A stretch of 64,000 bases of DNA from Escherichia coli (GCF_003334305.1 NZ_QOWS01000008.1), one strand, 5' to 3'. Positions 49,577-58,054 are shown, counted from the stretch's first letter. Made by a program: numbers and translations. The notes: generated by a model not told the origin, from the letters alone.

Positions 49577-50155
49577 ATAGATGCCAGCAGTAAACTATAA
49601 GATGCATAGTTAGTGCCATATCCTTCTAAATAGAAAATCATAGACAGGATAATCCTTAAAAATCACAAATGATTTAACTAATGCATTGAGAATGATGACG
49701 GCTCGGTCAACAAGTCATCAACAGACAATAACCACGTAATCATGCTTCTCTGACATTTTATCGGAGAAGCAATGACTCTTTGTCTCAGTACCCTCCTCCT
49801 TTTTAAAAGGCAGATTTCAGTCGCTAATACAACACATTTTTAAATACACTTTAACCTGGTTCATTATTACACATCTAAAACATCACAAAAATATTACTTC
49901 ACACACTATCGGAGAACAAAATAACTTTTTAAAATGAGCGCTTTTTGATAGTTGTTAACGTTTTCCTTTACGATACTATCACTGCCTTTTTTTATACACA
50001 AATATTACCGGGTGGAAATGAAAGGGAATTTAAAGGTAATTATATCAGGAAGATATAACGCATTATATTTATTGTGTGTAGAAGAAAATCCATTCCTGTT
50101 CTAATTATCCAATTTAAAAACCTTAGCATAAAACAGATGATGAATAAGGAATGTT

Positions 50156-51379
50156 ATGTCAATTGACTTTACCCCAGGTATAATAAATACATATCACGGC
50201 GATATTTATAACTGCACAACAAATACCGATAATGTTAAAACGCCAGACACATCGAAGTGGCCTTGTGATAATTGGGAAGAACAACAACCCATTAATTCCA
50301 CATTCTCTGGAGAAGGATACAACCCTGAACAATTTGATTTAGCGCAACAACAACTCCAACAAATTAATGCATGCCACACGAACACCACATATACAAATGC
50401 AGACTACTCAAAAGTTGTGGTTCAACTTGTAAGTCTTATTAATAACATTGAAACGATAAGTTCGACACCACTTACGCAACAGACACAATCAATACTTAAT
50501 CGGATTCATAACATTAGATACGAAAAGGATAAGGATTCTGTATGTCAAATCATTGTTGTCGTTAATCCAGAACCCAACAATCCAATCATAACTAAAATTC
50601 TCGTAGAAGAAGGAATACCCGAAATATTCAGTGTCCAAACCGTTTCTTCCGATAATAAAAATTTTGCTGGGCTACGAGCTGACTTACCAACTGATATAAG
50701 AGACATTCAAAGCTTGTACTTAAAAATGGCGAAGCTGTATATTGAGCACAGTGAAAATGAAAATAGGATGGAAGCCCTTGCTGGATGCGACTTTATTGAT
50801 TTCAACATGACAGGGCAAGATATGTCCAGGCTAGTCCTAACCTTATCAAATTTTTATTTTGAAGATCTACTTAATATAAATTTCACTGACGCAAATTTAT
50901 TTAACACTATTTTTTCACACAAGGAAAATCCCATCCCCAAACTACATAAATATGAACAACATCTTGACAAACAAATCAATGGCTTGTTTTCTACATTGTT
51001 AACTATTAATGACAACTCTTTACGCGCGAAAGCGGAAATTGCTTCGAGAATAATTGATTTCTTAGAGGCAAAGGTAGTGAATCTTTCATTTGATGACATA
51101 TTAAAATATAAGCAAGAGTTCAAAAAAATATGTTATAAACAACTTCAAGAGTTTACAACACCCTCTCTATACAATAAAATTCAAAAATGGGCAACAATGT
51201 CTAAAAATGAATTCATAGCATTTCATTACGAGACACTTCAACCCGAAAAGATTTCATACCCCTTTTATTTAAAGAGAGATCTGCCTAATGAAAAAGATAT
51301 AAATTATGGGGTGGAAATAGAAATACCATCTGGCAAAAGAATTCGCTTATCAAATCATTATCAGAATATAATACCATAA
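50156..51379 (+). CDS. yhiS: Hypothetical protein, intact YhiS-like ORF
   Basis: 407-aa ORF with AAGGAA ribosome-binding site; AT-rich; sits where I recall the IS5-interrupted yhiS pseudogene in K-12, upstream of slp; identity is by position only. Confidence 0.55.
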
Positions 51380-51625
51380 TATTGATTATTAGCACTTTAT
51401 AATCATTGAATAAAAATAGATTTTATGTAATTTTAAAACAAAGGGTTATATTATTGGGCGATGGATACTCATACCACGCCCCAAAATAACGGAATTGAAC
51501 TAAACAGAAGGGATATAAACATCAGACAGGTTTACGTTACTATCAGGCATATCACCTCAGAATCAGATGAAAACTATAAAGAAATATCTATTATGGTTTT
51601 AATATTTGTTGATAAGGATAGTAAC

Positions 51626-52192
51626 ATGAACATGACAAAAGGTGCACTCATCCTCAGCCTTTCATTTTTGCTTGCCGCATGTAGTTCAATTCCGCAAAAT
51701 ATCAAAGGCAATAACCAACCTGATATTCAAAAAAGTTTTGTTGCTGTTCATAACCAGCCGGGGTTATATGTTGGTCAACAAGCGCGCTTTGGTGGGAAGG
51801 TTATCAACGTTATCAATGGCAAAACGGATACGTTGTTAGAAATCGCTGTATTACCGTTGGATAGCTATGCGAAGCCTGATATTGAAGCCAACTATCAGGG
51901 CCGACTGCTCGCCAGACAAAGCGGCTTCCTTGATCCAGTGAACTATCGTAATCACTTTGTTACCATCCTCGGTACCATTCAGGGTGAACAACCAGGCTTT
52001 ATCAATAAAGTCCCGTATAACTTCCTGGAAGTGAATATGCAGGGCATCCAGGTGTGGCATTTGAGAGAAGTGGTTAATACCACCTATAACCTGTGGGATT
52101 ACGGCTATGGTGCATTCTGGCCGGAACCGGGCTGGGGTGCGCCTTACTACACCAATGCGGTGAGTCAGGTAACACCTGAGCTGGTCAAATAA
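51626..52192 (+). CDS. slp: Starvation-inducible outer membrane lipoprotein Slp
   Basis: Start at MNMTKGALILSLSFLLAACSSIPQ... (lipobox LAAC), 188 aa; the ORF is extended upstream in the six-frame track. Confidence 0.9.
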   Translation: MNMTKGALILSLSFLLAACSSIPQNIKGNNQPDIQKSFVAVHNQPGLYVGQQARFGGKVINVINGKTDTLLEIAVLPLDSYAKPDIEANYQGRLLARQSGFLDPVNYRNHFVTILGTIQGEQPGFINKVPYNFLEVNMQGIQVWHLREVVNTTYNLWDYGYGAFWPEPGWGAPYYTNAVSQVTPELVK

Positions 52193-56030: not shown

Positions 56031-56558
56031 ATGATTTTTCTCATGACGAAAGATTCTTTTCTTTTACAGGGCTTTTGGCAGTTGAAAGATAATCACGAAA
56101 TGATAAAAATCAATTCCCTGTCAGAGATCAAAAAAGTAGGCAATAAACCCTTCAAGGTTATCATTGATACCTATCACAATCATATCCTTGATGAAGAAGC
56201 GATTAAATTTCTGGAGAAATTAGATGCCGAGAGAATTATTGTTTTGGCACCTTATCACATCAGTAAACTAAAAGCTAAAGCGCCTATTTATTTTGTTAGC
56301 CGCAAAGAAAGTATCAAAAATCTTCTTGAGATTACTTATGGTAAACACTTGCCCCATAAGAATTCACAATTATGTTTTTCACATAATCAGTTCAAAATTA
56401 TGCAACTGATTCTGAAAAATAAAAATGAAAGCAATATCACGTCGACGCTCAATATTTCGCAACAAACATTAAAGATTCAGAAATTCAACATTATGTACAA
56501 GCTGAAACTAAGACGTATGAGCGACATCGTCACCCTGGGTATCACATCTTATTTTTAG
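56031..56558 (+). CDS. gadE: Acid-resistance transcriptional activator GadE (LuxR family)
   Basis: Start at MIFLMTKDSFLLQGFWQLKDNHEMIKIN... (175 aa); long AT-rich upstream regulatory region. Confidence 0.92.
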   Translation: MIFLMTKDSFLLQGFWQLKDNHEMIKINSLSEIKKVGNKPFKVIIDTYHNHILDEEAIKFLEKLDAERIIVLAPYHISKLKAKAPIYFVSRKESIKNLLEITYGKHLPHKNSQLCFSHNQFKIMQLILKNKNESNITSTLNISQQTLKIQKFNIMYKLKLRRMSDIVTLGITSYF

Positions 56559-56896
56559 TCAGGACATAAGCAACTGAAATTGATGGCTGGCATGACGAGG
56601 GATGCAGATGCTGATTTCATTACCCCCGGTGATTACTAAAGGAGAGGCTAAAACGACTTTATTCCCCTGGTATGTGTATCCACCAGTAGAACCCTTCGTT
56701 GCCCGAATGCTGGCAGGAACTGTTGGCAGAACGGCAACATTTTTTTTGTCGTTGACCTCACCATGTCGATCACTGTGCCTGTATCCCACCTTACTGGCTG
56801 ACAACCCCACTATGCCGCTGGTCTGTAAATCCCTCATATCTCTCCTCGCGCGCAATTTAAAGAACCGTTATTTCTCAAGAATTTTCAGGGACTAAA

Positions 56897-58054
56897 ATGA
56901 ACAGAAGAAGAAAGCTGTTAATACCGTTGTTATTCTGCGGCGCGATGCTCACCGCCTGCGATGACAAATCGGCGGAAAACGCCGCCGCCATGACGCCTGA
57001 GGTCGGTGTCGTCACACTCTCCCCCGGTTCGGTCAATGTGTTGAGCGAATTGCCCGGTAGAACCGTTCCTTATGAAGTTGCCGAGATACGTCCCCAGGTG
57101 GGCGGTATTATCATTAAACGCAACTTTATCGAAGGCGATAAAGTGAACCAGGGCGATTCGCTGTATCAGATTGATCCTGCACCTTTACAGGCCGAGCTAA
57201 ACTCCGCCAAAGGCTCGCTGGCGAAAGCGCTCTCTACCGCCAGCAATGCCCGCATCACCTTTAACCGCCAGGCATCGTTGCTGAAGACCAACTACGTTAG
57301 CCGTCAGGATTACGACACCGCGCGCACCCAGTTGAATGAAGCAGAAGCCAATGTCACCGTCGCCAAAGCGGCTGTTGAACAGGCGACGATCAATCTGCAA
57401 TACGCGAATGTCACCTCGCCGATTACGGGCGTCAGCGGGAAATCGTCGGTGACCGTCGGCGCACTCGTTACCGCTAATCAGGCAGATTCGCTGGTTACCG
57501 TACAACGTCTGGACCCGATTTATGTCGATCTCACGCAGTCGGTGCAAGATTTCTTACGCATGAAAGAAGAGGTCGCCAGTGGGCAAATCAAACAGGTTCA
57601 GGGCAGTACGCCAGTACAGCTCAATCTGGAAAATGGTAAACGCTACAGCCAGACCGGCACGCTGAAATTCTCCGACCCGACGGTGGATGAAACCACGGGC
57701 TCCGTGACGTTACGGGCGATTTTCCCCAACCCAAATGGTGACTTGCTGCCTGGCATGTACGTCACGGCATTAGTGGATGAAGGTAGCCGCCAGAATGTAT
57801 TACTGGTGCCGCAGGAAGGCGTCACCCACAACGCCCAGGGTAAAGCAACGGCGCTCATTCTGGATAAAGACGATGTTGTGCAGCTACGCGAAATTGAAGC
57901 CAGCAAAGCCATCGGCGACCAGTGGGTTGTCACCTCTGGCTTGCAGGCTGGCGATCGGGTGATCGTTTCCGGTTTGCAACGCATTCGTCCGGGTATCAAA
58001 GCACGAGCAATTTCCTCCAGCCAGGAAAACGCCAGCACCGAATCGAAACAATAA
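56897..58054 (+). CDS. mdtE: RND efflux membrane fusion protein MdtE
   Basis: 385 aa lipoprotein MNRRRKLLIPLLFCGAMLTACDDKS... Confidence 0.95.
   Translation: MNRRRKLLIPLLFCGAMLTACDDKSAENAAAMTPEVGVVTLSPGSVNVLSELPGRTVPYEVAEIRPQVGGIIIKRNFIEGDKVNQGDSLYQIDPAPLQAELNSAKGSLAKALSTASNARITFNRQASLLKTNYVSRQDYDTARTQLNEAEANVTVAKAAVEQATINLQYANVTSPITGVSGKSSVTVGALVTANQADSLVTVQRLDPIYVDLTQSVQDFLRMKEEVASGQIKQVQGSTPVQLNLENGKRYSQTGTLKFSDPTVDETTGSVTLRAIFPNPNGDLLPGMYVTALVDEGSRQNVLLVPQEGVTHNAQGKATALILDKDDVVQLREIEASKAIGDQWVVTSGLQAGDRVIVSGLQRIRPGIKARAISSSQENASTESKQ

Follow-up and report, generated by a model that had tools for sequence, protein, structure and literature searches.

The AT-rich block downstream of gor in an Escherichia coli chromosome: the left arm of the acid fitness island and its patchwork fine structure

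Why should base composition fall so sharply between ordinary housekeeping genes of an Escherichia coli chromosome, and what is the DNA that lies there? The question is raised by a 64,000-nucleotide stretch of the assembly GCF_003334305.1 (NZ_QOWS01000008.1; hereafter the window, with positions counted from its first letter), in which an earlier note had described positions 49577-56900 as an AT-rich acid-fitness island, horizontally acquired and silenced by H-NS. The block is very probably the left arm of the Escherichia acid fitness island: foreign AT-rich DNA that came to lie at the junction between gor and ccp/treF, was later remodelled and is silenced by H-NS and StpA. Apart from the silencing, which is transferred from published work on K-12, this reading is carried by direct observation of base composition, gene content, insertion site, absence from that site in other genera, and modular polymorphism. 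As a feature the block is already known, for it is the left half of the published acid fitness island, described as a 15-kb region repressed by H-NS and controlled by RpoS (PMC2984483) and as a set of 13 acid-resistance genes (bioRxiv 10.64898/2026.02.10.705075).

Firstly, the compositional shift is real and highly significant. The interval 49577-56900 has a G+C content (GC) of 0.386, against 0.497 for the entire window, and a sliding-window profile drops from 0.52-0.58 to 0.32-0.44 across ~49.5-56.9 kb. The background for comparison was 166 kb of the same chromosome, made up of three distant 50-kb regions and the DNA past gadA, in which 7.3-kb windows have a mean GC of 0.503 (standard deviation 0.034, minimum 0.416). 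Against this the block has a z-score of -3.45 and none of 550 background windows is equally low. Sliding-window GC was the check set beforehand for the claim that the block is more AT-rich than the housekeeping genes gor, prlC and mdtF, and the strong deviation that it returned bears the claim out; a composition that departs from that of the genome (0.386 against 0.503) is also what is expected of a genomic island. Unsupervised segmentation on G+C places the low-GC DNA of the window in three segments, at 28541-32676 (GC 0.353), 48388-56584 (0.391) and 61126-64000 (0.404), with likelihood ratios of 116-509 at segment boundaries (chi-square, one degree of freedom) and of 235-356 at those of the main block. 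The earlier note had counted two such blocks, both of which are present, but had missed the third, which holds gadW and gadX. Its edges for the main block also move, the left by ~1.2 kb and the right by ~0.3 kb, both further left, and the right compositional boundary, at 56584, lies 26 nt past the gadE stop codon.

The most deflationary explanation is that low GC arose by chance, or merely follows from how much of the stretch is non-coding. Gaps between genes in the window are indeed mostly AT-rich (GC from 0.29 to 0.60, the majority 0.33-0.50), and ~24% of the block is non-coding. The coding sequences, however, are themselves low: each gene within 50156-56558 has a GC of 0.33-0.47 and a GC at third codon positions (GC3) of 0.30-0.56, whereas gorA, prlC, mdtE and mdtF have values of 0.53-0.55 and 0.61-0.65, and GC3 in the housekeeping flanks is 0.55-0.75. 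Per-gene GC, the background windows and the boundary likelihood ratios have already refuted this explanation, to which we attach next to no credence.

Secondly, the genes are those of the acid fitness island. The window matches E. coli strain A7 at 100% identity and IAI1 at 99.9%, and its open reading frames lie at the same coordinates as in the annotation of the 100%-identical record, which runs gorA, dinQ, arsRBC, an ArsR/SmtB regulator, a permease, a 407-aa hypothetical protein, slp, dctR, yhiD, hdeB, hdeA, hdeD, gadE, mdtE, mdtF, gadW, gadX, gadA, ccp and treF. The identities first given for slp-dctR-yhiD-hdeBA-hdeD-gadE agree with that annotation; every gene named was right, and the 407-aa gene, yhiS, had been left out. 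In order along the window, gorA (43906-45258) and arsRBC (45904-48038) lead to the slp-dctR operon (51626..52878, + strand), which encodes the outer-membrane lipoprotein Slp (51626-52192, GC 0.459) and the LuxR-type regulator DctR (52348-52878, GC 0.390). The hdeA-hdeB-yhiD operon (52920..54405, - strand, GC 0.40-0.46) follows, encoding the periplasmic acid chaperones HdeA (54073-54405) and HdeB (53631-53957) and the MgtC-family protein YhiD (52920-53567); divergent from hdeAB is hdeD (54660..55232, +, GC 0.469), which encodes an acid-resistance membrane protein. Next stands gadE (56031..56558, +), among the most AT-rich genes of the block, and after it the resistance-nodulation-division efflux pump genes mdtE-mdtF (56945..61192, +), a GC-normal segment (0.53-0.55) inside the island. 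The AraC-type regulators gadW (61555-62283, -) and gadX (62651-63475, -) occupy the third low-GC segment, and gadA begins just past the window end. The interval that had been proposed is correct for this AT-rich arm, but the island does not stop at 56900: it runs on through GC-normal mdtEF and the second AT-rich arm, gadW/gadX, to gadA, which is GC-normal again (0.539, outside the window).

The finer marks of the published island are present as well. Gene content and order from slp to gadA agree; the site lies between gor/arsRBC and ccp (yhjA)/treF, with gadA-ccp-treF beyond the window; and the spacer between hdeD and gadE is 798 bp long. Two small RNAs of the island are found at their places. 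GadY lies between gadW and gadX (62526-62639, +; Rfam, 150 bits), and the spacer between gadE and mdtE holds a match to ES205 (56676..56747, +; Rfam RF02754, 105 bits against a gathering score of 86). Published work describes gadE and mdtEF as co-transcribed in one operon (PMC3708157) and a small RNA, GadF, as processed from the 3' untranslated region of gadE (PMC5145812); as the two share place and strand, ES205 and GadF are probably the same RNA. The annotation also has a 92-aa 'hypothetical protein' at 56559-56837 (-), antisense to ES205/GadF and matching no family, which may be a spurious call.

Thirdly, the site is occupied differently outside the genus. The comparison was anchored on GorA, with 10 kb on each side and one genome per species. 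At 76 non-Escherichia loci of the Enterobacteriaceae the upstream order pitA-uspBA-rsmJ-prlC-rlmJ-gor is largely conserved, and none of the 76 has island genes in the 10 kb downstream of gor; 50 have ccp or treF there, usually followed by yhjB, rcdB, yhjD and yhjE, and the remaining 26 have other DNA or end too early. In Citrobacter sedlakii, for instance, ccp begins ~54-56 bp after gor. Within Escherichia, by contrast, slp-dctR follows gor at each of the four loci compared (E. whittamii, Escherichia sp. MOD1-EC7003, E. albertii and "E. coli E69"), and the two that reach far enough also carry yhiD-hdeBA-hdeD-gadE. Such absence from the syntenic site in relatives is a further property of genomic islands, and this comparison, which had been suggested as a check and was here run across the Enterobacteriaceae, argues for the horizontal acquisition that had been proposed. 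The distance from gor to ccp/treF at the 76 loci ranges from 51 bp to >10 kb (median 1.9 kb over the loci with ccp or treF), which makes the junction a general hot spot for variable DNA. As a separate matter, a record titled 'Chryseobacterium sp. 18061' (CACSKA010000004.1) has an enterobacterial pitA-uspBA-rsmJ-prlC-rlmJ-gor-treF locus in approximately the same layout as 'Citrobacter sp. 18056' from the same study; mislabelling or contamination of the assembly is the probable cause.

How such DNA is kept in check has been studied at length in K-12. In competitive gel-shift assays H-NS binds the gadE, gadW, slp-dctR and yhiM promoters, and its direct control of hdeAB and hdeD has been reported (PMC2984483). 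The slp, gadE and gadW promoters are bound by YdeO, which does not induce yhiS (PMC4222967), and at the gadE spacer more than 10 regulators act through displacement of H-NS (PMC3708157). The spacer between arsC and yhiS is H-NS-bound in every chromatin immunoprecipitation study compiled in PMC3661553 (Table 1), where the insH/slp spacer, yhiL and yhiL/yhiM are likewise listed as H-NS-bound 'promoter islands' tied to foreign genes. An extended protein-occupancy domain, present or not according to conditions, spans hdeAB-yhiD/hdeD/arrS/gadEF, and most of the protein bound there is lost when both hns and stpA are deleted (PMC11230228). Most recently, H-NS was found bound across the island, with high StpA affinity at slp-dctR and yhiS, and H-NS/StpA binding at hdeA-hdeB-yhiD was accompanied by >20-fold de-repression in delta-hns (bioRxiv 10.64898/2026.02.10.705075). 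The spacers and genes of the window share 98-100% identity with their counterparts in other strains (the yhiS coding sequence apart), and it is through this identity that we infer the K-12 results to carry over. H-NS/StpA occupancy and the regulatory circuit are therefore likely to hold for this strain too, and the description of the island as H-NS-silenced is supported to that extent.

Two long spacers appear central to this control. At 579 and 798 bp, the gaps at 49577..50155 and 55233..56030 are the longest in the window (the third-longest is 423 bp), and the coordinates first given for them are exact. Runs of at least five A or T are found at 7.1 per kb in the block against 3.0 per kb in the flank. 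The earlier note had placed such tracts in both gaps, which is right for the left one (13.8 per kb, ~2.3 times a shuffle of the same composition) but not for the gadE gap, whose 5.0 per kb is not above the shuffle. The hdeD-gadE spacer (+ strand, GC 0.360) is the published gadE 'sensory integration region': it is 98.4-100% identical in three other strains, and for the 798-bp spacer in the literature transcription is reported to begin at -124, -324/-317 and -566 relative to the gadE ATG (PMC3708157), sites which by position would fall at ~55907, 55707/55714 and 55465 in the window. The left gap (GC 0.320) is composite. Its first ~240 bp (49577-49816) belong to an accessory arsR2-arsP module, described below, and the remaining ~310-340 bp (from ~49817/49847 to 50155) are a conserved spacer upstream of yhiS; homology to K-12 picks up again at 49817 and homology to E. 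whittamii stops at 49846. Judged by this homology, the conserved part is the counterpart of the K-12 arsC/yhiS 'promoter island'.

In outline, then, foreign AT-rich DNA would have entered the gor-ccp/treF junction in the Escherichia lineage and would later have been remodelled by gain and loss of modules (arsRBC, arsR2-arsP, yhiS, chu and mdtEF). On account of its AT content H-NS, together with StpA, would coat this DNA and keep it silent in neutral growing cultures, and the two long spacers would be the sites where silencing is set and relieved. The hdeD-gadE spacer, with at least three promoters, would integrate EvgA/YdeO, GadX/GadW, GadE, RpoS, PhoP, ArcA and other regulators, whose displacement of H-NS would allow GadE to be made; GadE with RcsB would then switch on hdeAB, hdeD, slp-dctR, mdtEF and gadA/gadBC. 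The left spacer would be a 'promoter island' bound by H-NS, upstream of orphan yhiS. A strict GAD box is not a feature of the block, as the consensus (TTAGGATTTTGTTATTTAAA) has no site at three or fewer mismatches in the window (the best, at 54564, has five), whilst the control, the gadA promoter outside the window, matches exactly. Terminator-like sites in 49400-57000 (10 against 5.5 expected) are uninformative.

It is worth setting out what weighs against foreign origin and H-NS silencing. Absence in other genera refers to the 10 kb next to gor. There is no transfer RNA gene in the 64 kb, no flanking direct repeat and no annotated integrase or transposase (the right border lying outside the window); the classical signature of mobility is thus absent, and no donor lineage was identified. 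The H-NS data all come from K-12. The H-NS motif (TCGATAAATT, two or fewer mismatches) is ~2 times denser in the low-GC segments, which is equal to the density in same-composition shuffles, and a scan for the sigma-70 consensus across 49400-57000 found no excess (23 sites against 25.2 expected). Finally, mdtEF and gadA are native-like in composition, so the island is not one homogeneous foreign block.

This last point leads to a different account of the composition, in which AT-richness arose in place, through selection for H-NS binding and complex regulation or through AT-biased mutation in poorly transcribed, silenced DNA; low GC would then be weak evidence of foreign origin. On this account it fits that mdtEF and gadA are GC-normal within the same island and that AT-richness peaks in regulators, spacers and an orphan gene; accumulation of A and T at stalled promoters of foreign genes has, moreover, been proposed (PMC3661553). 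Divergence between species is also compatible with it. In comparisons of the window with E. whittamii, E. albertii or E69, the synonymous divergence (dS) of slp, dctR, yhiD, hdeB, hdeD and gadE is 0.56-1.1, two to four times the value that the same comparisons give for gor, prlC and rlmJ, as a higher local substitution rate would produce; against Escherichia sp. MOD1-EC7003, island-gene dS is only 0.10-0.21. Island and flanks thus appear to have different histories: lineages may have exchanged diverged alleles of the island, or the local rate may be raised, and the discordance is compatible with both. Yet the genes are absent from the syntenic site at the 76 non-Escherichia loci, so that acquisition is needed anyway, and low GC3 (0.30-0.56) extends through conserved coding sequence, beyond the regulatory DNA. 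Change in place can supplement a foreign origin but not replace it, and we regard it as a rather unlikely explanation by itself; acquisition of AT-rich DNA, followed by remodelling and silencing, remains the preferred reading.

That acquisition was not a single event is suggested by the fine structure of the locus, where modules, each with its own gain or loss, form a mosaic. The suggestion that DNA had been inserted here repeatedly holds at a finer grain than was first supposed, since arsRBC, arsR2-arsP, yhiS, chu and yhiJ/yhiL are each independently present or absent; within E. coli this presence/absence polymorphism, another property of genomic islands, affects arsR2-arsP, the yhiS cassette described below, chu and yhiJ/yhiL. 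At the left edge, an accessory module of ~1.6 kb (48242..49816, delimited by comparison with K-12) comprises arsR2, arsP and the ~240 bp of spacer downstream. The gene arsR2 (48172-48468, -) scores over the cut-off of an NCBIfam ArsR/SmtB metalloregulator subfamily. The permease gene arsP (48575-49576, +) gives a full-length match to Pfam ArsP_1 (E 1.7e-52) and falls well below the cut-offs of two NCBIfam equivalogs, SO_0444 (105 bits, cut-off 300) and SaoE (85 bits, cut-off 325); the label 'ArsP-like' given to it before seems fair at family level. The module has a GC of 0.46-0.49 and the compositional shift starts within it, at ~48388. It is matched in 2,523 of 5,426 E. coli genomes (~46%), and is found on plasmids too at ~84% identity (364 places). 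K-12 has 65 bp in its place and retains ~70 nt of the 3' end of arsR2, from which the K-12 state is read as a deletion.

Other modules differ likewise among lineages. Two of the four sister-species loci have arsRBC. Between dctR and yhiD, sequence type 131 (ST131, which we take to be phylogroup B2), O157:H7, cS51a, E. albertii, E69 and Escherichia sp. MOD1-EC7003 carry chuS-chuA and further chu genes; the same junction in the window is 41 bp only (52879-52919) with no chu, and E. whittamii is also without chu. The gene yhiS is absent from E. whittamii, E. albertii and E69, and its last ~150 nt remain in Escherichia sp. MOD1-EC7003, which indicates a deletion there.

Could the whole interval from gor to ccp nonetheless have been acquired in one insertion, with the mosaic and the differences among strains due to later deletions only? 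The arsR2 and yhiS remnants make at least those two differences deletions, and the core order slp-dctR...hdeD-gadE is shared by the four Escherichia loci (the gadE arm being reached in two). A single event, however, would not account for the sharp GC steps of 0.13-0.14 at the boundaries between gadE, mdtEF and gadW, nor for chu in some lineages only, for an arsR2-arsP module that occurs on plasmids, for a yhiS cassette with a dS of 0.42 from the common allele, or for island dS that is discordant with flank dS between species; and the span of gor-treF spacers across the family indicates a site that has been used repeatedly. We consider a single insertion improbable, more so than AT enrichment in place, and favour separate gain and loss of modules.

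The orphan gene yhiS (50156-51379, +) is intact here, with 407 codons supported by the open reading frame and the annotation; in K-12 the same gene is split by IS5. With a GC of 0.337 and a GC3 of 0.299 it is, together with gadE, the most AT-rich gene of the block. Its product matched no Pfam or NCBIfam family, its named homologues are confined to E. coli and Shigella, and a search of 1.84 billion representative proteins returned one full-length cluster. Profile searches gave weak matches in multiple stretches to pentapeptide-repeat proteins across residues 204-278 (E 2e-8 to 1e-3), the direct comparison with Pfam PF00805 is not significant (independent E-value 7.9 over residues 237-255), and an AlphaFold2 model has a mean predicted local distance difference test score of 40, too poor for its fold to be judged. 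Residues ~205-275 may be said to resemble pentapeptide repeats.

Within yhiS lies a divergent allele cassette (50505-51285, +), ~780 bp towards the C-terminal end and ~19% divergent in nucleotides from the common E. coli allele. Compared with other E. coli strains, the coding sequence as a whole shows 85.5-88.6% identity, while the genes around it match at 99-100%, and the yhiS alleles of five comparison strains are 95-99% identical to one another. The edges of the cassette are sharp on both sides, with 10-17 differences per 60 nt inside and 0-5 outside, in strains that agree with the window at 98-100% in the flanks. General fast evolution of AT-rich DNA was rejected as the cause, as the spacers on either side remain 92-100% identical and only the cassette diverges. 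A spurious open reading frame was rejected too, on a ratio of non-synonymous to synonymous divergence (dN/dS) of 0.12-0.45 overall; it is 0.12-0.18 within the common type and 0.4 in the cassette (dN 0.17, dS 0.42). To judge from these ratios, yhiS is under purifying selection and evolves as a coding gene. Across the 5,426 genomes the cassette is bimodal: 422 have it at 95% identity or more, 3,936 at 80-90%, two lie between and ~1,060 are without it. Its dS of 0.42 exceeds that of housekeeping genes (gor, prlC and rlmJ) between E. coli and its sister species, 0.22-0.39, and the simplest reading is import from an unsampled, diverged Escherichia lineage. That the two types are instead ancient haplogroups within E. 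coli, held by balancing or frequency-dependent selection on a silenced pentapeptide-repeat-like protein, strikes us as unlikely compared with a single neutral import. This rare, deeply diverged allele may be the only new element of the analysis.

Outside the main block, the yhiJ/yhiL segment (28541..32676, -, GC 0.353 by segmentation) holds yhiJ (28762-30384, -), intact, and yhiL (30646-32235, -), which in this strain carries an internal stop and is a pseudogene; both belong to DUF4049. Adjoining yhiL is the acid-resistance gene yhiM (32619-33671, +), a direct target of H-NS and of GadE/RcsB (PMC2984483), and through yhiM the two low-GC blocks, yhiJ/yhiL and slp-gadE, share regulation. They are not linked by paralogy, as a relationship between YhiS and YhiJ was rejected for want of any similarity (best E 4.3). 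The yhiJ/yhiL block is found in 4,161 of the 5,426 genomes and is cleanly missing from the rest; where present it is mostly 90-95% identical among E. coli genomes, more divergent than usual. For YhiJ the Dot/Icm effector Wip domain came up at E 0.0016, a weak match and far under the curated cut-off.

Two toxin loci may be mentioned for completeness. The dinQ type I toxin and its antisense RNA AgrB (Rfam, 109.5 bits) occupy 45312-45753, where a 33-nt direct repeat (45470-45502 and 45669-45701) is probably the agrA/agrB pair; lying between gor and arsR, this locus too is extra DNA relative to Citrobacter sedlakii. A hicB-hicA toxin-antitoxin pair (22769-23400, GC 0.42-0.44, GC3 0.35-0.42) lies between nikR and yhhJ, and is a fourth, small compositional anomaly of the window.

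The acid fitness island matters for the passage of E. coli and Shigella through the stomach, and is a textbook case of foreign DNA tamed by H-NS and then wired into a stress response; published data on survival at extreme acid pH come from K-12 and O157 only. Its confirmation here adds nothing new on the island itself. The interest lies in the fine structure: the ArsR/ArsP module, the yhiS alleles and the discordant divergence present a well-studied locus as a patchwork that is still rearranging, in which one gene, yhiS, remains wholly uncharacterised.

Among known systems, the closest is the island of K-12 itself. Genes, order and orientation are the same, as are the 798-bp hdeD-gadE spacer and the GadY and GadF/ES205 small RNAs, and neighbouring genes are 99-100% identical in nucleotide sequence. 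The two differ in yhiS, which is intact and carries a rare allele cassette here but is IS5-split in K-12, and between arsC and yhiS, where the 1.6-kb arsR2-arsP module of the window stands against the 65 bp of K-12. The variant with chu, seen in O157:H7, ST131, cS51a, E. albertii and other Escherichia, shares the slp-dctR arm and the same locus by gor, and the one such locus that reaches far enough (MOD1-EC7003) continues with yhiD-hdeBA-hdeD-gadE; it differs in having chuS-chuA between dctR and yhiD in place of the 41 bp of the window, and ST131 differs further in that arsRB is missing and yhiS truncated. More broadly, the island resembles H-NS-silenced xenogeneic DNA of the kind described as promoter islands and occupancy domains, being AT-rich, absent from relatives, bound by H-NS/StpA to judge from K-12, and released by dedicated activators that work against H-NS; the K-12 counterparts of the left spacer and of the yhiL/yhiM region are both among the listed promoter islands (PMC3661553). 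It departs from such DNA in having no mobility genes or transfer RNA at its borders here, and in that its silencing is conditional, that of a 'dynamic' domain tied to a physiological programme rather than permanent.

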